Part shown: in pieces, positions 21,518-36,825 of the stretch | Position numbering within the stretch: the first letter of the stretch is position 1 | How the letters are laid out: each line of letters opens with the position of its first letter | Source of the DNA: a virus | Lineage: Duplodnaviria; Caudoviricetes | Virus record (IMG/VR): IMGVR_UViG_3300010885_069896 | Location: 21,983-85,982 of that record | Strand: one strand, 5' to 3' | Length of the DNA: 64,000 bases | Translations under genes and position numbers: made by a program | Notes under the pieces: generated by a model | Seen by the model: the letters and a program-made list of their open reading frames with translations, nothing else | What the model was told of the DNA's origin: nothing | Database searches by the model: none

Positions 21518-23319
21518 TGTCAATAACAGTTGGTTCTTCTTTACCGTCCTTGCCAGTTACTTCTATAGATTTACCAGAAATTAAAGAATTTAATTATGAT
21601 TTTGTGTATAATTTTTTCACTACAGATGAACTGACCAACGCCAATATAACAACATTGGCAAACCCAAATACAGTAGAGTTTTCTAAAAATGTTCCAAGAT
21701 ATGTTAAACTATCTTGGAGTAAGGTTATCGTGGAGTCAGCAGAAAAAGCAAGGACAGATTTCATCGGTATATCGATACAGAAAAATGCGGCAAAAGTCAT
21801 AGATGAAGAAGATTTTTATGTTAAGGCTTTTTCAAATTTTCAGCAACAAGAAACAAATTTCGTAACACAAACTCAATCTTATATGAGTAGGCTTTATGAG
21901 CAGCTTAACTATAATCGCAGAAATGCAAGTTTAAATGATGCATATAAAGCAATTCATGAATCAACACCAGAGCTTTTATCACAGGAATTTATTTCTAAAT
22001 ATCTAAATTATGCACAAAGCAATGCCACAAGAACATCACAAGAGTCAAGCAGTCCAATTGATGATATGCAGATGAAAAATATCGTTGTTCCAGTAACAAA
22101 AAAAATATACGGAACAATGTTGCATGAAAAACTATTGAACGACTCTTTAACTCCGTTGAATAAAAACATTATTGATGCAGTTGCTCAAAAATTTGAAGAC
22201 CAAGTATCGATTAGAGATTATGCAAATCGTTTCAATGGATCACAATATGATTTAACTCTAGAAACACCAGTGAGCACTAAGGTAGAAGATGTAAATACAA
22301 ATAATAATTTTGCCTATGAAACCACGGGCTATATTATTGATAGATATAGATTACAAAATAGCTCACTTGTTGAAAAGAAAACATTTTATATTGAAAATCC
22401 AGAAACAAATGAACTATTTGACACAGAAATACTTTATAACCAAAAGTATGTTTATAATATCAAAGTAGTGACTGCAATACAAACTTTGGCCTTTGACCCA
22501 GAACAAAAAATAAACTTTGTAGGAACATATCTTGTTGCGGGAAAAGTTATGCGAACAGTGGCCAATTGCATAGATGAAAATCCAGCGCAGCCACCTACTG
22601 ATTTCTTCATACAGTGGGATTATAGTTTAAAAAAACTAGTATTATCATGGAATTTTCCAAATGATATACGTAGGCATATAAAATATTTTCAGGTATTTAG
22701 GAGAAAAAATGTAGGGCCAGTTAGACCGGCACAGTTGCCTTTTGAACTTGTTAAAATGTATGATTTTAATGATTTACAGCAAGCATCCGGCGTAATTTAT
22801 AATATCGCAGGAAATGTTTTTAAATTTGTAAACGGAGAAGATGCAATCGATATGTCCGTTGTTACGAGAGTTAATGATTTAAAAAATCTTTCCGTGGTAA
22901 CTCCAACTTGTTTTATTGATGAGGAATTCAACAAGGAGGATTATTATATCTATGCCGTCGCAGCCGTAGACGCTCATGGCATTACTACAAATTACAGTAA
23001 TCAAATAGGTGTCAAATTCAATGTGCAGCGTAATACAATTGGAAGAGTAGATATATCAGAGCCAGGAGCACCAAAACCATACCCAAATCTTTATCTAAAT
23101 AAAGATACCTTTATTGATACAATAAAAAATGAGGGTTATAGCCAAGTAACTGTAGTGTTCAATCCAGAGTACTTTGATTTACAAAGACAAAGCGGTGAAG
23201 ATTTAAATGTGTTAAGGTATGGACCAGATAATTTCTACAGACTGCAATTAATAAACACAGATCTTCAACAAGATCAATTTATAGATATTAAGATAACAGA
23301 TGATAGAACAACGGTTTAG
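21517..23319 (+). CDS. Hypothetical protein with an FN3-like segment
   Basis: 600-aa ORF, TAATG-coupled; PPTDFFIQWD...LVLSWNFP...YFQVFRR...YIYAVAAVD..G...YS resembles FN3. Confidence 0.6.
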   Translation: MSITVGSSLPSLPVTSIDLPEIKEFNYDFVYNFFTTDELTNANITTLANPNTVEFSKNVPRYVKLSWSKVIVESAEKARTDFIGISIQKNAAKVIDEEDFYVKAFSNFQQQETNFVTQTQSYMSRLYEQLNYNRRNASLNDAYKAIHESTPELLSQEFISKYLNYAQSNATRTSQESSSPIDDMQMKNIVVPVTKKIYGTMLHEKLLNDSLTPLNKNIIDAVAQKFEDQVSIRDYANRFNGSQYDLTLETPVSTKVEDVNTNNNFAYETTGYIIDRYRLQNSSLVEKKTFYIENPETNELFDTEILYNQKYVYNIKVVTAIQTLAFDPEQKINFVGTYLVAGKVMRTVANCIDENPAQPPTDFFIQWDYSLKKLVLSWNFPNDIRRHIKYFQVFRRKNVGPVRPAQLPFELVKMYDFNDLQQASGVIYNIAGNVFKFVNGEDAIDMSVVTRVNDLKNLSVVTPTCFIDEEFNKEDYYIYAVAAVDAHGITTNYSNQIGVKFNVQRNTIGRVDISEPGAPKPYPNLYLNKDTFIDTIKNEGYSQVTVVFNPEYFDLQRQSGEDLNVLRYGPDNFYRLQLINTDLQQDQFIDIKITDDRTTV

Positions 23320-23985: not shown

Positions 23986-26754
23986 TTATTGCTGGCCAGT
24001 AACAACAACTGCATTTGTGGTCAAGAGAAGACCAATCACAGAACATGCATGAGAAAGCGATACACGTTCCACCTTATGAGGGTCAATAATTCCACAATCA
24101 ATTAAGTCGCAATAAACATGTTTTCTCGCATCGTACCCTTGGCGAATTCGTTCATTGACCATTGTTTTAACTTTATTCTCAACAGCTTCTAATGGTCTAT
24201 TGGTTTTGCCTGCAATATCATTTAAAACACTTCTTGCTTTGTCATTTGCCATGTTTTTTAATTCATTCATAACAACATCAGCACTTCGACCTGTATTCTC
24301 TACAATAACACGAAGTGGCTGGCGGCATGCTTCAAAAATAACTTTTGCCCCAGCCAATTCATCTTCAAGAAGGTCGTCCGCATTGATCGCCATTTCTCTT
24401 TGCAGCCATTCTGAGGCATAGAAAAGAGCCGTGCCACCACCTGGGAGGATTCCCTCTTGAACAGCCGCTATCGTGGCGTTTAAAGCGTCTTCTACACGGT
24501 CTTTCTTTTCAAAGATTTCAACTTCTGTCGATCCACCAACTTTAATAACAGCAATACCACCAGCGAGCTTAGCAAGTCGCTTTTTTGTGTTATCACGTTT
24601 CAGTTCATCAATCGCCACATTCGTTGCTAATAGTGAACGCAGTTGCTCAATTCGCTCATCGATAAGTAATTTACGGGCACTGTCTTCGCCCACAAGTGTA
24701 GTTGTGCCCCTGGAGATAATGGCACGTTTACATTTACCAAGATCCTTTAGGGTTACACTTTTTAGATTTGTCCCAGAACTGGCATCAATTACACTACCGC
24801 CAGTAACCAAAGCAATATCTGATAAAATATCAATTCTATTATCACCATAACTTGGTGCCTTAACGGCACAAGAAAATAAAACACCTTTCATTTTATTTAC
24901 AAGCAATGTATGTAAAGCTTCGCCTTCAATTTCATCACCGATAATTAAAAGAGGTTTATTGGCATTGGCAACCTGTTCAAGTACTGGTAAAATATCTGCT
25001 AATGAGCTAAGCTTACGATTTGTTATAAGAATGTAGGGCTCTGTTAGTTCGCAAGTTAGTTTTTCTTGATTTGTAACAAAGTAAGGAGAAACAAAACCAG
25101 ATTCAAATTGCATGCCTTCAACAACGTCAAGCGTTGTTTTCACGCTTTTTGCTGGTTCAATTGTAATAATTCCATCTTGTCCGACTTTAGAAATGGCATC
25201 GGAAAGTAATATCCCTATAGAGCGATCTCCGTTGGCAGAAATAGTTCCGATATTAATGATATCATCATTATTTCTTACGGGTATTGCATTTTCTTTAATC
25301 CATCCTGTAACTTTTTCCGTCGCCCACTCCATTCCATGCTTGATGGAAATAGATGAGCGGCCAGTAGCAATCATCTTGACACCTTGCTGAAGCATTGAGT
25401 ATCCTAGAACGGTAGCCGTCGTGGTGTTGTGCGTTGGAACATAATCATTTGTAATATATAAGCAATCTTGATTACTGACCTTGATACACATCATTTCAGT
25501 TTGCTTATCAAGTTTTTTAATATCAGTAATACGCATTCCACACTTATTACCTTTTAGCTCGGTAATTCTGTAAATTGGTTTAGTACTATAAGATCCATCA
25601 TTATGTTTTCTTGCATAAGTTTGTATATTGACTGATTTGCCAAGACTTCGACATAACTCAACAAAATCTTGACACAGTTGTTTACTAACCGTGCTATATT
25701 CAAATAATCCACGACTGTTAATGCTACCATCTGTATCAATCAAGCCATTTAGTAGTTTTTCTCTGACTGCGGTCACTGAATACAAATATTGCTTTGGAAT
25801 AAATTTAGTGTGGCTTGTTTTTCCAAGGAGTCCAAGTTGTTCTAAATGATTTTTTATGATGGATTTTTGTCCATGAACTGGTTGTTTTGCACGATGACTA
25901 CCAGTAATTGAGGCTTTTATATAATGTTTTGTGGATGTATAATATCTTTTACGTAGCTTACAGCCATCTGGCAAAACTATATTATCAAGAATATAGTTTT
26001 CTTTGAGACCAACCGAAATATCAATTTCATGTTTTTGCGAGAGACTGCCATCTCCAAGAAGAACGCCAAGTAAGTACGGGTCTATTGTTAAATCACTTGA
26101 ATTTTCAAATTCAACTGGTGTTTTATTAATAAAAAATCTTCCTCTACCCCCAAGTTGAGCTACAGCGCCCGTTTCTAATAGCGCTTTTGTAGTCATCACC
26201 TTTTCAGTTCCATAATTTGTGTTAACACTCCACAAATGATCCTCACAACACTCTACTGTTCTTGAAATTGTGTTGCGATTGCCGTCAGATATAATAACTT
26301 GATATATATCTCTCATTCCCTTTGGAAAGATACCAAGAACTTTTTGTACAGTTCCATTGGTACCGCAAATTGAGTCACCTATTTTTAATGCACCTAATGT
26401 CGTCCATCCGTGCGGTGTTAATACTTTAGCGTATAGCGGCTGTGGCCCGTCACCTGCCAATTCATTTGTTTTACTTGCAATTTCTTTAATAAGTTCCGCC
26501 CCAATAGAAGGAAGCTTGTCTTTTAAATTAATACTTCTGGCAACCGTGACTCCATCTTTTGTGATTATTGGTGCAGTTACCCCGGTATCAATAATTACAT
26601 TATGCCCTGACGGACCCATCGTAGATTTTACGGCACGATAAAGAATTTCTGCTCCTTGCAGTAATTGAGTATGTGCCTCTTGGCCAAATGTTACTTCGTT
26701 CACTGATGGCTTTTGTTGCATTTCCGCTGCTACCATTTGTCCTGCTTTGCTCAT
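23986..26754 (-). CDS. groEL: Phage-encoded group I chaperonin (GroEL-like) with an intein; about 582 aa after splicing
   Basis: TMGPSGHNV, TKDGVTVA, AGDG|TTTATVL, EGMQFESGFVSPYF, KAPSYGD, ERIEQL, RLAKLAGGIAVIKVGG, GILPGGG and GIIDP motifs. Confidence 0.95.
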   Translation of the reverse strand: MSKAGQMVAAEMQQKPSVNEVTFGQEAHTQLLQGAEILYRAVKSTMGPSGHNVIIDTGVTAPIITKDGVTVARSINLKDKLPSIGAELIKEIASKTNELAGDGPQPLYAKVLTPHGWTTLGALKIGDSICGTNGTVQKVLGIFPKGMRDIYQVIISDGNRNTISRTVECCEDHLWSVNTNYGTEKVMTTKALLETGAVAQLGGRGRFFINKTPVEFENSSDLTIDPYLLGVLLGDGSLSQKHEIDISVGLKENYILDNIVLPDGCKLRKRYYTSTKHYIKASITGSHRAKQPVHGQKSIIKNHLEQLGLLGKTSHTKFIPKQYLYSVTAVREKLLNGLIDTDGSINSRGLFEYSTVSKQLCQDFVELCRSLGKSVNIQTYARKHNDGSYSTKPIYRITELKGNKCGMRITDIKKLDKQTEMMCIKVSNQDCLYITNDYVPTHNTTTATVLGYSMLQQGVKMIATGRSSISIKHGMEWATEKVTGWIKENAIPVRNNDDIINIGTISANGDRSIGILLSDAISKVGQDGIITIEPAKSVKTTLDVVEGMQFESGFVSPYFVTNQEKLTCELTEPYILITNRKLSSLADILPVLEQVANANKPLLIIGDEIEGEALHTLLVNKMKGVLFSCAVKAPSYGDNRIDILSDIALVTGGSVIDASSGTNLKSVTLKDLGKCKRAIISRGTTTLVGEDSARKLLIDERIEQLRSLLATNVAIDELKRDNTKKRLAKLAGGIAVIKVGGSTEVEIFEKKDRVEDALNATIAAVQEGILPGGGTALFYASEWLQREMAINADDLLEDELAGAKVIFEACRQPLRVIVENTGRSADVVMNELKNMANDKARSVLNDIAGKTNRPLEAVENKVKTMVNERIRQGYDARKHVYCDLIDCGIIDPHKVERVSLSHACSVIGLLLTTNAVVVTGQQ
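25426..26445 (-). mobile_element. 340-aa intein with a LAGLIDADG endonuclease, class-3 type (Pro1)
   Basis: Splits GDG|TTT; begins PQPLYAKVLTP; block B CCEDHLW, LAGLIDADG motifs YLLGVLLGDG and LNGLIDTDG, block F MMCIKV, ends VPTHN followed by Thr. Confidence 0.92.
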
Positions 26755-26761
26755 TGTTTTT

Positions 26762-27271
26762 TCATTCTTGTGGTAAGTTAACTGCTATTTTACGAACAGA
26801 GCCATCTGGCATCATGACTTCTCTTGTGTTGAGGTCTGGATCAGATAAGGCTGATCGAAAATTATTCATGGCATTATTTGCCGTTTGAGTACGTGGTTGA
26901 TTTCCTACTTCACTCAAAAAAACAGAAGGATCTAATTTTTCGCCAGTTTGATTTGTCGCTGCGGAGGATTTATCAACATTGCCATACCAAGAATTTACAC
27001 GTCCCATAGTATTTGCACATAAATCATCAACAAATGCCGTCAGCCTAGAAATAAGAACATTCCTTACTTCATCAATACTGCCATAAACTTCGCCATCCAC
27101 ACTGGAAAGATCAACAATTCTTTGTTTTTCTGGCGGTCCAATTGCAATCTTATATGAAACGCTCTCACCATCCAGAGAACGGTTAACTATTTCTTGTCTT
27201 ATGATGCCCGGTAAAACAGTTTGAGTTTTATTGCTAAGGACATATATTACTTGACCAATCGTATAACTCAT
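26762..27271 (-). CDS. Hypothetical protein
   Basis: 169-aa ORF immediately upstream of groEL in a tightly packed minus-strand operon. Confidence 0.65.
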   Translation of the reverse strand: MSYTIGQVIYVLSNKTQTVLPGIIRQEIVNRSLDGESVSYKIAIGPPEKQRIVDLSSVDGEVYGSIDEVRNVLISRLTAFVDDLCANTMGRVNSWYGNVDKSSAATNQTGEKLDPSVFLSEVGNQPRTQTANNAMNNFRSALSDPDLNTREVMMPDGSVRKIAVNLPQE

Positions 27272-30488: not shown

Positions 30489-31286
30489 ATGACATGGCAG
30501 CAAAAAAATTTTTTGTTTAAAAGACTAGGGCTGTTAGATTATTCATACAAAAATAAATCAGGTTTATATCTCATAGAAAATTTAGATAGCAATCGATTTT
30601 ATGTTGGCAGTGCAGTCGATCTATATAAAAGAATGCACGTTCACCTTTGTCAATTAAAAGGAAATTATCATCATAACGCATTTTTACAACATGATTATAA
30701 TTCTGGTAACAAAAAATTAGTTTTTACCGTTCTTGAGTTAATATCAAAGGATTTATTAATTACCGAAGAACAAAAATATATAGATTTAATTGGTAATAAT
30801 TCGGTTTGTTACAATATTTGTAAAATTGCTGGTAGTTGGCTTGGAAAAAAACACTCAGCAAAAACAAAAAAGATCTTAAGCGAAAAATCCATCGGAAGAA
30901 AAATATCAGATGCCACAAAGGAAAAAATAAGAAGATCTCACGTTGGCAAACCTCTATCGCCACATCATCCAATCCGAAATGGACATACAGAGCAGAGTAA
31001 AAATAAAATTTCAAAAACTATGCAGGGAAATAAAAATCATTTTTACGGCAAAACACATTCTAATAAGACAAAAACATTAATTAGAGAAAAACTACTAGGA
31101 AACTACCATGGCCCAAGAACAAGAGTGAAGATAATTAATAAAGACTCTGGGGAGATTTTAGTTTTTGATAGCATGTCTGCCGCTGGTAAAAAACTGGGAA
31201 TTAGTCAGTCTTATATAAGTCAAGTTTGTGCGGGTAAAATTAAAAATAATAAACCTTGGAATTTTGAGATAATTAAAGAAGAATAA
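30489..31286 (+). CDS. Free-standing GIY-YIG homing endonuclease (NUMOD3 repeats, NUMOD1-like C-terminus)
   Basis: SGLYLIEN...FYVGSAVDLYKRM..H...EEQKYI..CYN; HSAKTKKILS, HTEQSKNKIS and HSNKTKTLI repeats; FDSMSAAGKKLGISQSYISQVC. Confidence 0.9.
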   Translation: MTWQQKNFLFKRLGLLDYSYKNKSGLYLIENLDSNRFYVGSAVDLYKRMHVHLCQLKGNYHHNAFLQHDYNSGNKKLVFTVLELISKDLLITEEQKYIDLIGNNSVCYNICKIAGSWLGKKHSAKTKKILSEKSIGRKISDATKEKIRRSHVGKPLSPHHPIRNGHTEQSKNKISKTMQGNKNHFYGKTHSNKTKTLIREKLLGNYHGPRTRVKIINKDSGEILVFDSMSAAGKKLGISQSYISQVCAGKIKNNKPWNFEIIKEE

Positions 31287-31287
31287 T

Positions 31288-34200
31288 ATGGCAAATCAAC
31301 AAAAAAGTTTCTATCAACGTTTAACTCGTCTTTTCCGAAGTGGCCCAGCAATTCGCCGCAAAGTAAAAGGGCAAGATTATAAAAATTTCTACGATAATCA
31401 AGTTGTACAAAACAATCTAGGATATTATGGTGCATCTGGGTTTAAACGGGAAGCATCGCCATTTTCCGTCATGGGTGCTTATGGTATCCTCGATCGCAAT
31501 TCAAGATATGCAGAGTTCGCAGAAATGGAAAACTGCTTGCATGGTGACACTAAAATTGCAGTGCCTGGAGGATATAAAACACTCAAGGAACTAACTGAAG
31601 AATATGGATTAGAAAAAGATTTCATTGTATATTCTTACGATCACAAAAAAGGTGCAATTTTTCCGGCAGTGGCACGTCAGGCAAGACATACTACAACCAC
31701 TCATGCTTATCGAGTTAAATTTGATAATGGCAAAGAAATTATAGGAACAGAGGATCATCGTCTCATGAAACGAGATGGTACTTATTGTGAAATTCGTGAT
31801 CTTAAGTCTGGTGATGCGATGATGCCATTTTATCGACGATCTCTTGTCGGACAAAAAACAGGACCAGAGCTTCAAAAAAATTGTTATCAAGTTATATACA
31901 CGATGAATAAAGAAGATAGTCCATCTAGATGGATATCGGAGCACAGATTGTTAGGTAAATTTATCACAGGAAAAGGTTTGGCTGCAAACGAAGTTGTTCA
32001 TCATAAAAATTTTCAAGCTCACGATAATCGACTAGAAAATCTAGAGCTTATGACACTGGAGGCACATCAAACGTTGCACGCAAAAATACTGAATGGTAAA
32101 AAATGGGACAAAGAAACCAACTCAGAATGGATATCAGCATTCAAGAAACGTCACTCGGCTTGGATGAAAGAAAATAACCCAGCAGAAAGAAAAGATATTA
32201 AATTTGAAAGAATATTGCAATGGTGTGATGAAAACGGTTATAATTTACATGCTGTCGCTAGAGCGTTTGATACTGACCTCAATACAATTAAAAGAAAACT
32301 AAAATTAAAAGGCTTTAATGATTTTATTTCATTCGCAAAAGCATACTGCGTTGGCTGGAAACCTTATAACGGAGAAAATAAAGGATCTAGTAACAATCGC
32401 TATCGTAGCGATCTAACGTTTGAATCGATCTGCAACGCATACACAAAAGGGCTAAGTCAAAAAGCGCTCGCCAAGAAACTAAAATCTTCAGTTACTCCAA
32501 TAAATGCTAGGTTAAAAGAACACAAATATAATACATGGTCAGAATTCGCCTCGACATATGAAAATCTTAAAGTTGAAAGCATTGAGTATTATGGGATAAC
32601 TGACCTGTATGATATCACTGTCGATGGTTACAAAAACTTTGCGACAGATTCTCTCATAGCCCACAATACGGCTGAGATCGCTACTGCATTAAATGTATAT
32701 GCTGACGAGTCTTGTGCGACTGATGAAAAAGGAAAAACATTCCACATTTACTCAGAAAATGCACAAGTACAAAAGGCGCTAGAAGAGTTGTTTTACGAAG
32801 TTGTTAATATTGAATTTAATGCCCGTAGAATGGTGAGAAATTTAGTTAAAAATGGCGACTATTTTTGTTATGTTGAAGTAGTACCAGATTTTGGCGTTAT
32901 TAATGTTGAACCATTGCCAGTCAATGAAATCGAACGTGAAGAAGGATTCGATAAACATGATCCATATGCTGTTCGTTATCGCCTGATAACTCGTGGCGGA
33001 AAATATTTAGAAAACTGGCAGATGCTACATTTCCGTATTCTTGGAAATGATCTTTTCCTTCCGTATGGAACAAGCTTTCTTGAATCTGCACGTAGGTCAT
33101 GGCGTCAGTTAACAATGATGGAAGATGCGATGATGGTATATCGCTTAGTGCGATCACCGGAACGTCGTGTGTTTTATATAGATGTATCAGCAGTCCATCC
33201 AAACGATATTCCATCATATATGGAGGCCGTCAAGGAGGGGATGAGAGGTGCTTCCGTAATTGAGCAGCAGCAAGGTCGTCAGGATTTCAGATATAACCCA
33301 TTGCCCGTGCATAAAGATACTGGGATTCCACTGCTTGACGGCAGAACAATAACCATTGAAGAGCTTGCGAAAGAGTACGATACAGGAAAAGAAAACTGGG
33401 TATATTCTATTCAGGACTCTAGCCTCGGAATAGTTCCAGGTAAAGTAGCATGGTGTGGTAAAAATTATACCGCAAATAAATTAATCAAGATAACTCTTGA
33501 TGATGGAACTAGCCTTAAAACTGCACCAGAGCACCCTTACGTGCTTCGTGATGGTTCAAGTGTAAGAGCGGACCAATTGATCCCTGGAATGTCTCTAATG
33601 CCCCTTTATAGAGAGATTACGGACAAAGGATATGAACGGTGCTATAACCCAGAAACCCAGAAATATGAAACCACTCATTCTTTAGTTGCAAAAAACTTCT
33701 ACCAGAATGAATGGCAGAATACAGCGAGACCTGTGGTTCATCATAAGTGTCCATGGGAAAGAGAAACTAATAAAAGAAATAATTCTCCAAGAAATCTAGA
33801 AGTAATGAATTTTTGGCAACATAGAGAGCTTCATGCAAAAATGGTTGAGCATACTTTGCTTCGCCCCGAAGTATTAAAAGAAAATTCTCGTAGATTGACA
33901 CGATACAATCGTTCAAAACTACATAGCACCCGTGTGTCATTGAATAATATAAAATATCAAAAGGGCCAAAAATTATCTCAGCTATACAATGGTTCTGATC
34001 TTCACAAAGAGCATAATGAAATCAGAAAAGCTGCTCAATTTAATTCATGGTCATTGAACAAGGCGGAACGTTGCCAAGCAATGAGATTTAAATTTACGGA
34101 AAAATGCTTGCAAATAGCTAAAGATTTGCTGTCTGCTAACCCAACTATTTCACGAGATGAATTTGGGGCAAGATTACAAAATAATATTGAATTCGTAGCG

Positions 34201-36825
34201 GCGATAAAAGAAGCAAACGCTAATACGAAACGTCAAAATAAAATCCCAAACCATAGAATACTTGCACAGAATATTTCTAACTATGCTGGTTTTGAATCTT
34301 ATGTGGATTTCAAAAACTCATTCTCTTCTCATCAATATCTTAATCATAAAATTTCAATAGTTGAGACAGTCACAGAAACAGTTGATGTTTATTGCATGAC
34401 AGTGGTTGGGCCAAATGGTGAAGAAGATCGTCACAATTTTGCTGCTGTATCTAATGATGATACGGGTAATTCTAAAGAAAAAATTTCGGCAATATTTCTA
34501 AAAAACTCCGTAGATGAGGATTACTTTCTACCAACTAGACCAAACAATCAGACTAAAATTGAATCTATTGCGGGTGGACAAAATACAACGGCCACAGAAG
34601 ATGTGGAGTACATCCAGAAAAAACTTATTGCTGCCCTCATGGTACCAAAGGCGTACCTTACATACGATGAAGCAATATCATGCTTGGTCGGAGAAACGCA
34701 AATACCTTTACTTGACGGTTCTAGCCCCACTATCAAAGAACTTTCAGATAAATTTGCTAATGGAGAATTAACTGAAGCTTATTGCTATTCGACTTTACTT
34801 GATGGGACAGTTGTTCCAGGTAAAATAAACAAAGCGTGGGCCACCAAAAAAGTAAATTCAACATATCGGATTTATTTAGACAATGGAGAATATATCGACT
34901 GTACGGAAAATCACCCATTCCTGTTTAAAAACGGGGTCTATAAACGTGCTGATGAATTGACTGTTAATGACTCATTGATGCCTGTGTATAAAAAACTATC
35001 CTCCAAACAAGACAAAGATTTACTGGATGGATATGAAATGGTATTTGACAATAAAACTGGTGAATGGAAATATACACACAAAATGGTATCTGACTGGCAA
35101 GCTGAAAACAATGGTGGTTATACTATAGGTAAACAAAGAGTAGTACACCATGTAGATTTTAATAAACTAAATAATAGTCCAAAAAATCTACAAGAGATGA
35201 CTTGGTACAGCCATAGAAAACTACATTCACAAAATCTTTCATCGACAATTTTACGACCAGATGTAATGATAAAACGAGAGCCAAGTAGACTTGCTGCGCT
35301 TTCGGCATCTAGACACCGTAATATAAAATCAAGACAAATGAAACAACAAATGAACGATCCAAAATCGGCTTTGCGTTCATGGGTCCATGGGGAAGAAATA
35401 AAACAAGTAGTATCCAGAAACATGAAAGCCGCTTGGAGTACCGAGAAATATCGTTCAATAAAAACCAAGCAAAATAAAGAGATATTACAAAAACCAGAAG
35501 TTAGAGAAAAATTGTTTGGTAAAAATCATTGGGCTGCAAGAGCTACTAAACATTTTGATTTGAATTGGCTTGTTGAATACTGTAAACAAAACAATGTAAC
35601 AGAATATCTGCATTTCAGAAAATCATCACAGAACAATTCACCATGTAGCTCTAGAGTAGTCGGAAGAATATTCAGAGAAAACAATATTTCTGGCTGGCGT
35701 GAATTTGAAAAACAATATCTTTGTTTCAATCACAAAGTTATTCAGATAGAAATAAAAGAGTGCGGTGATGAAGCCACACAGGGTGTTTGGGTATATGACT
35801 TGGAAGTAGAAAAGACACACAACTTCCTTGTAAAACAAGGCGTGGTAGTACACAACAGCAAAAGTACATTGGCTCAGGAGGACATTAGATTTTCTCGCAC
35901 AATTGCAACATTACAAAAAATCATGATTGCTGAATTAAATAAACTTGCAATCATTCATTTGTATGCACTTGGATTCAGCGGAGATGATTTATTAAACTTT
36001 GAACTTAAATTCTCCAACCCTTCGACAGTAGCAGTCCAGCAAAAACTAGCATTGGTTTCTCAAAAAATAGAAATAGCGGCAAAAGCTTGGGAAGTTTCTA
36101 AAGAAACAGGCATTATGAGTATGCCATATATTCAAAAAGAAATTCTTGGACTTCGCCCAGAAGAAATAAATCAAATCCGTCTTGAGGCCCGTCAAGATCA
36201 AGTTGCAATGGCCGAGCTTAAGAAAATAGCAGAAAATCCACCATTTGATAATTCCCTCGACTCAAATATAGATATTTTTGATAAGGGTAACTATAGCGTA
36301 CCATCTTCTCCTTTTGCGCCAGACCCTAAACAACTAAGAGATATCGAATTAAAAAATCAAGAAGATGAACTAGCACTTCGCAGAGAAAGAAAATTGGAAA
36401 AGGAAAAAAATGGAGAAAACTCAGGCGCTCCAATTAAACTTAACCCAACGCCAAATCTTGATAAAGCATTCCGCAGGAATAAAAGAAGCAAAGAATTCAC
36501 TGGCATCAGTGCTTTGGCAATGCCTAACTTTAAAGACATGCTTGATATAACAAATAATCGTTATTCTAAAGACCCGTATGATACCCAGAGTTCAAATTAT
36601 ACAAGAAAATTTGTTCTTGAAGAAAGTCAGATTGAAAATGAGTTGCTTGGTCGTGGAAAACTACCATATAAAATTTCAAAAGAAATGCAATCTACATTAA
36701 AAACAATGAATGAATCCATGAAAAGAGATTTTGAAATTAAAGGAATTGAACTGGTAAATGAAAAATCTTCAGAAGATCAATCAGATATGTTATTTTTAAT
36801 AGAAAAAGATCTAAAAACAGAATAG
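31288..36825 (+). CDS. gp20: Portal vertex protein (T4 gp20-like) with three inteins; about 674 aa after splicing
   Basis: Extein motifs EIATALNVYADE, EDAMMVYRLVRSPERRVFYIDV, EDYFLP, DVEYIQKKLIAALMVPK and TLAQEDIRFSRTI are characteristic of gp20-like portals. Confidence 0.93.
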   Translation: MANQQKSFYQRLTRLFRSGPAIRRKVKGQDYKNFYDNQVVQNNLGYYGASGFKREASPFSVMGAYGILDRNSRYAEFAEMENCLHGDTKIAVPGGYKTLKELTEEYGLEKDFIVYSYDHKKGAIFPAVARQARHTTTTHAYRVKFDNGKEIIGTEDHRLMKRDGTYCEIRDLKSGDAMMPFYRRSLVGQKTGPELQKNCYQVIYTMNKEDSPSRWISEHRLLGKFITGKGLAANEVVHHKNFQAHDNRLENLELMTLEAHQTLHAKILNGKKWDKETNSEWISAFKKRHSAWMKENNPAERKDIKFERILQWCDENGYNLHAVARAFDTDLNTIKRKLKLKGFNDFISFAKAYCVGWKPYNGENKGSSNNRYRSDLTFESICNAYTKGLSQKALAKKLKSSVTPINARLKEHKYNTWSEFASTYENLKVESIEYYGITDLYDITVDGYKNFATDSLIAHNTAEIATALNVYADESCATDEKGKTFHIYSENAQVQKALEELFYEVVNIEFNARRMVRNLVKNGDYFCYVEVVPDFGVINVEPLPVNEIEREEGFDKHDPYAVRYRLITRGGKYLENWQMLHFRILGNDLFLPYGTSFLESARRSWRQLTMMEDAMMVYRLVRSPERRVFYIDVSAVHPNDIPSYMEAVKEGMRGASVIEQQQGRQDFRYNPLPVHKDTGIPLLDGRTITIEELAKEYDTGKENWVYSIQDSSLGIVPGKVAWCGKNYTANKLIKITLDDGTSLKTAPEHPYVLRDGSSVRADQLIPGMSLMPLYREITDKGYERCYNPETQKYETTHSLVAKNFYQNEWQNTARPVVHHKCPWERETNKRNNSPRNLEVMNFWQHRELHAKMVEHTLLRPEVLKENSRRLTRYNRSKLHSTRVSLNNIKYQKGQKLSQLYNGSDLHKEHNEIRKAAQFNSWSLNKAERCQAMRFKFTEKCLQIAKDLLSANPTISRDEFGARLQNNIEFVAAIKEANANTKRQNKIPNHRILAQNISNYAGFESYVDFKNSFSSHQYLNHKISIVETVTETVDVYCMTVVGPNGEEDRHNFAAVSNDDTGNSKEKISAIFLKNSVDEDYFLPTRPNNQTKIESIAGGQNTTATEDVEYIQKKLIAALMVPKAYLTYDEAISCLVGETQIPLLDGSSPTIKELSDKFANGELTEAYCYSTLLDGTVVPGKINKAWATKKVNSTYRIYLDNGEYIDCTENHPFLFKNGVYKRADELTVNDSLMPVYKKLSSKQDKDLLDGYEMVFDNKTGEWKYTHKMVSDWQAENNGGYTIGKQRVVHHVDFNKLNNSPKNLQEMTWYSHRKLHSQNLSSTILRPDVMIKREPSRLAALSASRHRNIKSRQMKQQMNDPKSALRSWVHGEEIKQVVSRNMKAAWSTEKYRSIKTKQNKEILQKPEVREKLFGKNHWAARATKHFDLNWLVEYCKQNNVTEYLHFRKSSQNNSPCSSRVVGRIFRENNISGWREFEKQYLCFNHKVIQIEIKECGDEATQGVWVYDLEVEKTHNFLVKQGVVVHNSKSTLAQEDIRFSRTIATLQKIMIAELNKLAIIHLYALGFSGDDLLNFELKFSNPSTVAVQQKLALVSQKIEIAAKAWEVSKETGIMSMPYIQKEILGLRPEEINQIRLEARQDQVAMAELKKIAENPPFDNSLDSNIDIFDKGNYSVPSSPFAPDPKQLRDIELKNQEDELALRRERKLEKEKNGENSGAPIKLNPTPNLDKAFRRNKRSKEFTGISALAMPNFKDMLDITNNRYSKDPYDTQSSNYTRKFVLEESQIENELLGRGKLPYKISKEMQSTLKTMNESMKRDFEIKGIELVNEKSSEDQSDMLFLIEKDLKTE
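31534..32667 (+). mobile_element. Portal intein 1 (378 aa, class 1, HNH endonuclease)
   Basis: CLHGDTKI start, block B GTEDH, HNH motif VVHHKNFQAHDNRLENL, block F LYDITV, ends AHN followed by Thr. Confidence 0.92.
33304..34506 (+). mobile_element. Portal intein 2 (401 aa, Pro1, block-F Cys, HNH endonuclease)
   Basis: Removing it restores RYNPL|SVDEDYFLP; PVHKDTGIPLLDG aligns without gaps to CLVGETQIPLLDG of intein 3; HNH motif VVHHK...NNSPRNL; block F VYCMTV; ends FLKN followed by Ser. Confidence 0.88.
34681..35856 (+). mobile_element. Portal intein 3 (392 aa, class 1, HNH endonuclease)
   Basis: CLVGETQI start, block B CTENH, HNH motif VVHHVDFNKLNNSPKNL, block F VYDLEV, ends VHN followed by Ser. 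Confidence 0.92.

Follow-up and report, generated by a model that had tools for sequence, protein, structure and literature searches.

A phage portal intein from an abundant, uncharacterised Pro1/Cys-F4 lineage, probably of class 3 type on a class 1 HNH scaffold

Known intein classes and the second portal intein

Class 3 inteins have until now been treated as one lineage marked by a Trp-Cys-Thr (WCT) signature, and in their prototype, the Bethlehem intein, which starts with Pro1, the Cys at position F4 is absolutely required (PMC2807308). Here we describe the second of three inteins (intein 2) in a T4-type portal gene, carried on a 64,000-nucleotide stretch of viral DNA (Duplodnaviria; Caudoviricetes; positions 21,983 to 85,982 of IMG/VR virus record IMGVR_UViG_3300010885_069896; hereafter the window). 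The class 1 inteins are recognised by Cys, Ser or Thr at position 1, the residue that makes the N-S or N-O acyl shift; intein 2 instead starts with a Pro that is conserved in all of its close relatives, and it has Cys364 at F4. Comparison of its sequence with these relatives confirmed a genuine intein without an N-terminal nucleophile and with Cys at F4. We hold, with a probability of roughly 0.65, that it is a working intein of HNH type, belonging to a large portal lineage that combines Pro1 with Cys at F4 (the Pro1 lineage), that it follows a class-3-type route and that it derives from Cys1 HNH portal inteins.

The canonical class 3 inteins (WCT; the Bethlehem prototype, Msm and Mle DnaB-1 and Bvi IcmO) resemble intein 2 in lacking an N-terminal nucleophile and in having Cys at F4, His at B10, a C-terminal Asn, Ser or Thr at +1 and a phage host gene. 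In our canonical sample Trp occupied B12 in 100% of inteins, Thr occupied G5 in about 90% and His occupied G6 in about 88%, with Ser at B7, a LAGLIDADG nuclease and insertion sites of the P-loop type; intein 2, by contrast, has a putative HNH nuclease region and a portal insertion site, and its blocks F and G contain extra residues. When set against the WCT signature (PMC2807308), it retains Ser1074 at +1 but has Tyr for Trp at B12 and Leu for Thr at G5. These two departures, and a Lys in place of the penultimate His (FLKN/S; the solidus marks a splice junction), had been pointed out in an earlier note made from the sequence of the window alone, and all three were confirmed; to that list we add Ala at B7, where Thr is usual.

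A broader, operational definition of class 3, as given in PMC7891396, combines the absence of Cys at position 1 with Cys at F4, the combination that intein 2 presents as Pro1 and Cys364. The earlier note had described class 3 as one lineage defined by W-C-T; this published definition already takes in intein 2. Table S1, in the 2020 supplement of the same paper, tallies 1702 NCBI nr inteins: 1685 WCT, seven FCV, one FCS and a small number with other triplets. The FCV and FCS inteins fall under the same definition, and Phe-Cys-Val is also the commonest triplet of the Pro1 lineage; the triplet of the window's intein, Tyr-Cys-Leu, differs, and the eight records are not confirmed as portal inteins. 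In the available text of PMC7891396 these variants are counted without description, tree placement or tests, and no description of the portal Pro1 lineage was found in the remaining literature searched.

The AceL NrdHF intein (PDB 6ZGQ; PMC7891396), with the triplet MCT, has no Trp at B12, as is the case for intein 2. Its class 3 mechanism has been demonstrated, and this route is still used in the absence of Trp B12 and of both assisting His residues, which shows that the W/T/His signature is not obligatory. AceL NrdHF is unlike intein 2 in being split and mini, in having Thr at G5 and Ala1, in lacking an HNH domain and in its host gene.

Class 2 (KlbA) inteins likewise lack an N-terminal nucleophile; they use Cys+1 directly and are not known to have an F4 Cys. 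They are archaeal, start with Ala1 and lie outside the WCT (F4-Cys) group (PMC2807308), and intein 2 departs from them in its Pro1, its Ser+1 and its Cys at F4. The class 1 HNH portal inteins (inteins 1 and 3 of the window, and the L028 type at the same site as intein 2) have the same gene, the same or neighbouring sites and the same HNH module in common with intein 2, together with the motifs DTxIPLLDGR, NHKV and HNF. They differ at position 1 (Cys or Ser), at F4 (Asp), at B7 (Thr) and at G6 (His), and are therefore able to use the standard four-step pathway.

Anatomy, junctions and conservation of the Pro1 lineage

Intein 2 displays the features of an intein with a HINT (Hedgehog/intein) fold: blocks A, B, F and G, His at B10, a C-terminal Asn, a +1 nucleophile and an in-frame position (Table 1). 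On its own it scored 46.5 bits against the Pfam model Intein_splicing (PF14890; cut-off 35.8), and phmmer related it to intein 3 with an expectation value (E) of 4e-29. An AlphaFold2 model from a 56-sequence alignment had a mean predicted local distance difference test score (pLDDT) of 90.8; the best Foldseek matches of this model were solved inteins, with bacterial intein-like (BIL) and Hedgehog HINT domains lower in the list. The HNH pattern His-His...Asn...Asn...His of intein 2 is invariant with inteins 1 and 3 and conserved in the 56 relatives; Pfam HNH_3 matched two stretches in the whole portal, the best in intein 1, and no match to it was listed at E <= 0.1 when intein 2 was scanned by itself. 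Block F contains an insertion of 6-7 residues (GPNGEED) that is typical of the Pro1 lineage.

The junctions were fixed by extein homology. Sixteen related portals have an uninterrupted ...DLRYNPL-SVDEDYF..., which is the predicted ligated junction of the window and establishes Pro as residue 1, Asn401 as the last residue and Ser as +1. An internal TGN/S (34462-34473), paired with VHN/S of intein 3 in a three-sequence alignment, was considered as the C-terminal junction and was ruled out by the same homology. The observations in the earlier note that Pro (CCC, 33304-33306) stands where intein 3 has Cys1 (PVHKDTGIPLLDG versus CLVGETQIPLLDG, the start of intein 3, which ends in VVHN/S), and that F4 is Cys in intein 2 and Asp in intein 3 (DVYCMTV versus VYDLEV), were both correct.

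The possibility that the Pro codon is a sequencing or assembly error, with TGC as the true codon at 33304-33306, is negligible, and nothing was found in its favour. Two substitutions would be required, and the identical portal protein is present on three contigs from two sources (JGI/IMG and Logan). The related portals P0003, P0277, P0004 and P0278, which come from other assemblies, have 400, 397, 366 and 366 of the 401 intein residues in common with intein 2 and all have the Pro start; indeed Pro is found in all close relatives and in 149 members of the lineage. Among 20 IMG/VR family members CCT, CCG, CCA and CCC are all used, so the proline is maintained at the amino-acid level. Together the three contigs, the four Pro1 relatives and the use of all four Pro codons rule the error out.

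When 1.8 billion representative proteins were searched in full with HMMER, intein 2 had 3161 matches at E <= 1e-3, of which 352 reached E <= 1e-30. Intein termini were mapped by alignment for the best 150 of these matches, 49 IMG/VR loci and 120 relatives of the Bethlehem class 3 prototype; the census totalled 414 inteins, 394 of them unique. In this sample F4 was Cys in 149 of 149 Pro1 portal inteins (139 unique). At the same position the Cys1 portal inteins had Asp (107), Cys (27), Thr (22) or Asn (4), and the Ser1 inteins had Asp (10). Among the 139 unique Pro1 inteins, His at B10 and Cys at F4 were present in 100% and Asn at G7 in 95%, and the +1 residue was Ser (61%), Cys (27%) or Thr (12%). 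The remaining diagnostic positions were occupied by Ala (80%) or Thr (16%) at B7; by Phe in 70% and Trp in 6% at B12; by Val, Leu or Ile in 91% (Val in 54%) and Thr in 2% at G5; and by Lys, Ser, Arg, Gly or Ala at G6, where His is essentially absent. Intein 2, which the earlier note had treated by itself, is not a singular variant but one member of a large lineage.

This lineage occupies at least three portal sites (RNL/CKYGD, NPL/SVDEDYF and GQF/TGDIE), and the NPL/SVDEDYF site of intein 2 falls in a conserved portal motif. Its members range from full-length HNH forms down to mini-inteins of 100-299 amino acids (aa), which retain Pro1 and Cys at F4. One Pro1 member (L010:3584-4801, plus strand) apparently ends GIFMFQ/SVDEDYF, with a C-terminal Gln for Asn. 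The intein load can be extreme: the largest related portals, P0005 (2818 aa) and P0006 (2930 aa), have nine and five separate stretches matching intein 2, which points to several inteins per portal, two or three of them Pro1 inteins that occupy different sites. Intein content also varies among close portal relatives, the first intein of P0003 being different and P0004 being longer by 416 aa; and seven matches to the Pfam intein model were present on a single phage contig (IMG/VR record G001; 141.8 kb). Megablast of the region against cultured phages gave no match, and tblastn against them gave only six distant matches, five of which are Cys1 inteins (including Bacillus phage SP-15, two records); accordingly, no cultured host system was found. 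One metagenome scan returned only one distant locus.

The portal is essential for head assembly. An inactive remnant would be a 401-aa domain that does not splice and is either tolerated in the portal or the mark of a defective genome, and such a state would be compatible with the joint alteration of four canonical catalytic positions (position 1, B7, F4 and G6) and with a genome from an uncultured phage. The same deviations, however, are kept over 139 unique sequences of 35-75% identity; synonymous Pro codons vary while His B10, Cys F4, Asn G7 and the +1 nucleophile are kept; the mini forms retain the splicing residues; the interrupted motif is contiguous in the 16 related portals; and the same intein was found again in five assemblies. 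We consider inactivity very improbable.

Splicing route and origin of the lineage

Splicing of class 3 type, started by Cys364, is the most likely route for intein 2 on the evidence of its sequence. Cys at F4 is invariant only where the N-terminal nucleophile is missing, and it is accompanied by invariant His at B10, Asn at G7 and a +1 nucleophile. Class 3 was defined by this very pattern, and both the Bethlehem prototype, with its Pro1 and required F4 Cys, and AceL NrdHF are precedents; for these reasons Cys364 is taken as the first nucleophile. While anatomy, junctions, conservation, relatedness and the co-variation of Pro1 with Cys F4 can be read directly, every chemical step is one that we infer. 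An N-S acyl shift is not open to Pro1. The Cys364 thiol, positioned by His77 (B10), would instead attack the Leu(-1)-Pro1 bond to give a branched intermediate with a block-F thioester, from which the N-extein would be transferred to Ser+1 to form a block-G branch. Asn401 would then cyclise, aided by the retained block-F His instead of a penultimate His, and an O-N shift would yield the ligated portal, RYNPL-SVDEDYF.

Ser1074 (+1) could alternatively attack the Leu-Pro bond directly, as in the Ala1 inteins of KlbA, with Cys364 only tuning the active site. Such a class-2-like route accords with the exclusion of the class 1 first step by Pro1, with the +1 nucleophile that is always there in the lineage (Ser, Cys or Thr) and with the Cys+1 of 27% of its members, at the RNL/CKYGD site. 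It is nonetheless improbable, given that Cys at F4 in 149/149 Pro1 inteins, against its optional presence in Cys1 relatives, is what would be expected if this Cys were an obligate nucleophile; that the Ser+1 of the window is a poor nucleophile for attack on an amide; and that the KlbA inteins fall outside the F4-Cys group (PMC2807308).

Relatedness was examined by comparing splicing-domain profiles with one another after masking of positions 1, F4 and G6. The Pro1 lineage scored 339 against class 1 portal inteins and 351 against those Cys1 portal inteins in which F4 is Cys or Thr. Its score against canonical class 3 was 31.5, compared with 71.6 for class 1 portal inteins, making the Pro1 lineage the portal group least like canonical class 3. 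In splicing-domain trees (FastTree with 394 rows, IQ-TREE with 101 and 76 rows; 134-135 columns) canonical class 3 formed a clade with 100/100 support, its branch measuring about 3.6 substitutions per site, and the Pro1 lineage formed one clade (support 99; 96; 98/92). In the 76-row tree it was placed within a 97/92 clade with Cys1 portal inteins, and non-portal class 1 HNH inteins of Rhodobacter, Aphanizomenon, Bacillus and Streptococcus phages fell outside this portal clade. Profiles and trees thus concur with the class 1 HNH kinship within the same portal gene that the earlier note had proposed.

In a full-length intein tree (63 rows, 384 columns, quick search) the group of the window lay in a clade with 11 inteins of the same site that have both Cys1 and Cys at F4 (97 by the Shimodaira-Hasegawa-like approximate likelihood ratio test, SH-aLRT). 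A small Pro1 group (P0081, P0120, P0129, P0147 and P0064), without the block-F insertion (QYCMTVEKWHNF) and with MAPDHPV as its block B, was separate from the main one in this tree and stood beside other Cys1 inteins. Its placement conflicts between the two analyses, as the splicing-domain tree puts it with the main Pro1 clade; the split may be due to a second origin, to exchange of the HNH module by recombination or to an error in the tree.

The forms found at the NPL/SVDE site can be arranged as a series: Cys1 with Asp F4 and VHN; Cys1 with Cys F4 and VKN; Cys1 with Cys F4 and a block-G hairpin; Cys1 with Cys F4 and the block-F insertion (P0105); Pro1 with Cys F4 and without the block-F insertion; and Pro1 with Cys F4 and the block-F insertion, the type of the window. 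The lineage would appear to descend from Cys1 HNH inteins of this portal gene in which F4 was already Cys and from which the penultimate His had in many cases gone. The suggestion in the earlier note of an intermediate state fits the forms at the same insertion site that have both Cys1 and Cys at F4, such as the inteins at L024:2966-4141 and in P0105. Cys at F4 is also scattered in HNH inteins outside the portal gene, as two non-portal class 1 HNH inteins with Cys1, Cys F4 and Cys+1 illustrate: L054 (IMG/VR record G001, 111197-112351; VYCLTV...VHN/C) and L064 (dCTP deaminase of Aphanizomenon phage CL131; TYCLTA...VKN/C).

We put at even odds the proposal that the strategy of a block-F Cys arose within the class 1 HNH portal inteins independently of the WCT lineage, via intermediates that are still extant. 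The order of events would be a change of F4 from Asp to Cys and loss of the penultimate His with Cys1 present, followed by replacement of Cys1 by Pro and of Thr by Ala at B7. This may have happened twice, the full-length tree having two Pro1 groups, each beside Cys1 relatives.

Several points weigh against a class-3-type route for intein 2. In solved inteins Ser or Thr at B7 helps to strain the scissile bond, and B7 of intein 2 is Ala. Trp at B12 is reported to be essential in tested class 3 inteins (PMC2807308, PMC5222942), whereas intein 2 has Tyr and 70% of the lineage Phe; and a WCT graft on a class 1 intein gave no splicing (PMC7664689), from which it follows that Cys at F4 alone is not sufficient. 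On the origin of the lineage, two approximately unbiased (AU) tests did not reject a joint clade of the Pro1 lineage and canonical class 3 when the two were constrained together (p = 0.835; second test p = 0.457, with a difference in log likelihood, delta lnL, of 0.36). These tests do not fix the point at which the very long canonical class 3 branch attaches.

The AU results, together with the frequent Pro start and the Ser or Thr at +1 in both groups, speak for the alternative that the Pro1 lineage is a divergent branch of a single canonical class 3 clade, in which Trp was replaced by Phe or Tyr, Thr by Val or Leu, and LAGLIDADG by HNH. We regard this alternative as unlikely, although clearly less so than inactivity or direct attack by Ser+1. 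The profile score of 31.5 is below that of class 1 portal inteins (71.6) and far under the 339-351 obtained with class 1 neighbours; the Pro1 lineage is nested with Cys1 inteins of the same site in both kinds of tree (97/92 in the 76-row tree; 97 SH-aLRT, with 11 Cys1/Cys-F4 inteins, at full length); it has its HNH module, NHKV motif, block-G hairpin and insertion site in common with them; and long-branch attraction would favour the constrained joint tree. An origin independent of canonical class 3 is the more parsimonious account, likely but unproven. The convergence envisaged in the earlier note is accordingly favoured by the profiles and by the free trees, which place intein 2 among Cys1 portal inteins, but it is not established, since the tree with canonical class 3 that the note had called for leaves the joint clade unrejected.

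A structural study argued that so many changes would have to coincide for a class 1 intein to become class 3 that such a conversion is improbable (PMC7664689). The portal lineage provides hundreds of natural sequences in which the hallmark of class 3, an obligate F4 Cys without a first nucleophile, occurs on a class 1 HNH scaffold. As Cys1 relatives with Cys at F4 exist at the same site, the residues needed for the block-F route and the order of changes are directly testable. If the origin was independent, nature achieved the conversion of class 1 to class 3 where engineering failed, by a route that could be replayed with living sequences. The lineage is also a possible source of inteins for protein engineering with Ser+1 junctions and without an N-terminal Cys.

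Portal gene and its surroundings

The portal is gp20-like, with a predicted spliced length of about 674 aa. It is set in a T4-like morphogenesis module, with prohead protease, major head protein and tail sheath downstream (Table 1).

Table 1. Coordinates of the portal gene, its inteins, the blocks of intein 2 and two neighbouring loci in the window
Feature	Position	Strand	Remarks
T4-type portal gene (gp20-like)	31288..36825	+	1845 aa; 3 in-frame inteins; Pfam Portal_T4 E 1e-52; Intein_splicing in 3 stretches
Intein 1	31534..32667 (aa 83-460)	+	Class 1 HNH intein; Cys1, LYDITV, AHN/T
Intein 2	33304..34506 (aa 673-1073)	+	401 aa, Pro1 to Asn401
Intein 2, junctions with the exteins	33304..34506	+	N-extein ends RYNPL; C-extein starts SVDEDYF
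Intein 2, block A	33304..33342	+	PVHKDTGIPLLDG; residue 1 Pro (CCC, 33304-33306), Cys there in relatives
Intein 2, block B	33505..33546	+	GTSLKTAPEHPYVL (TAPEHPY); B7 Ala, B10 His77, B12 Tyr
Intein 2, HNH-type homing-endonuclease core	33733..33834	+	VVHHK ... N ... N ... HRELH; lines up with the HNH stretches in inteins 1 and 3
Intein 2, block F	34384..34440	+	DVYCMTV-GPNGEED-RHNF; Cys364 (TGC, 34393-34395) at F4; block-F His kept
Intein 2, block G	34486..34509	+	SAIFLKN/S; G5 Leu, G6 Lys (no penultimate His), G7 Asn401, +1 Ser (TCC; Ser1074)
Intein 3	34681..35856 (aa 1132-1523)	+	Class 1 HNH intein; Cys1, VYDLEV, VHN/S
Free-standing homing endonuclease gene	30489-31286	+	PHROG 314, E 1e-30
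GroEL/Cpn60-like gene (open reading frame)	23989-26784	-	
Intein of GroEL/Cpn60-like gene	25426-26445	-	340 aa; LAGLIDADG

The free-standing homing endonuclease gene stops directly before the portal start codon at 31288. The intein of the GroEL/Cpn60-like gene is inserted within the ATP-site motif AGDG/TTTATV and has the full canonical class 3 signature: a Pro start, EDHLW with Trp at B12, EMMCIKV with Cys at F4 and a PTHN/T end. The same phage therefore has both a canonical class 3 intein and a Pro1 intein of the portal type.

The Bethlehem prototype, known as a 'DnaB' intein, actually sits in the gp11 terminase (Q/PLALNT, SASHGW, VKCIGI, LTHN/T). When the Bethlehem record was scanned with the Pfam intein model at E <= 1e-3, this intein went undetected, although intein 2 exceeds the cut-off of that model. 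The sole match in the record, at E 5e-5 and below the cut-off, was to gp52, annotated 'phosphoesterase' (L001:7578-9296, minus strand). This protein has HEGNHD/CSW at a possible intein start and EVWCLRV ... HLTGN/S towards the end; by these motifs, gp52 may contain an intein in which position 1 and F4 are both Cys.

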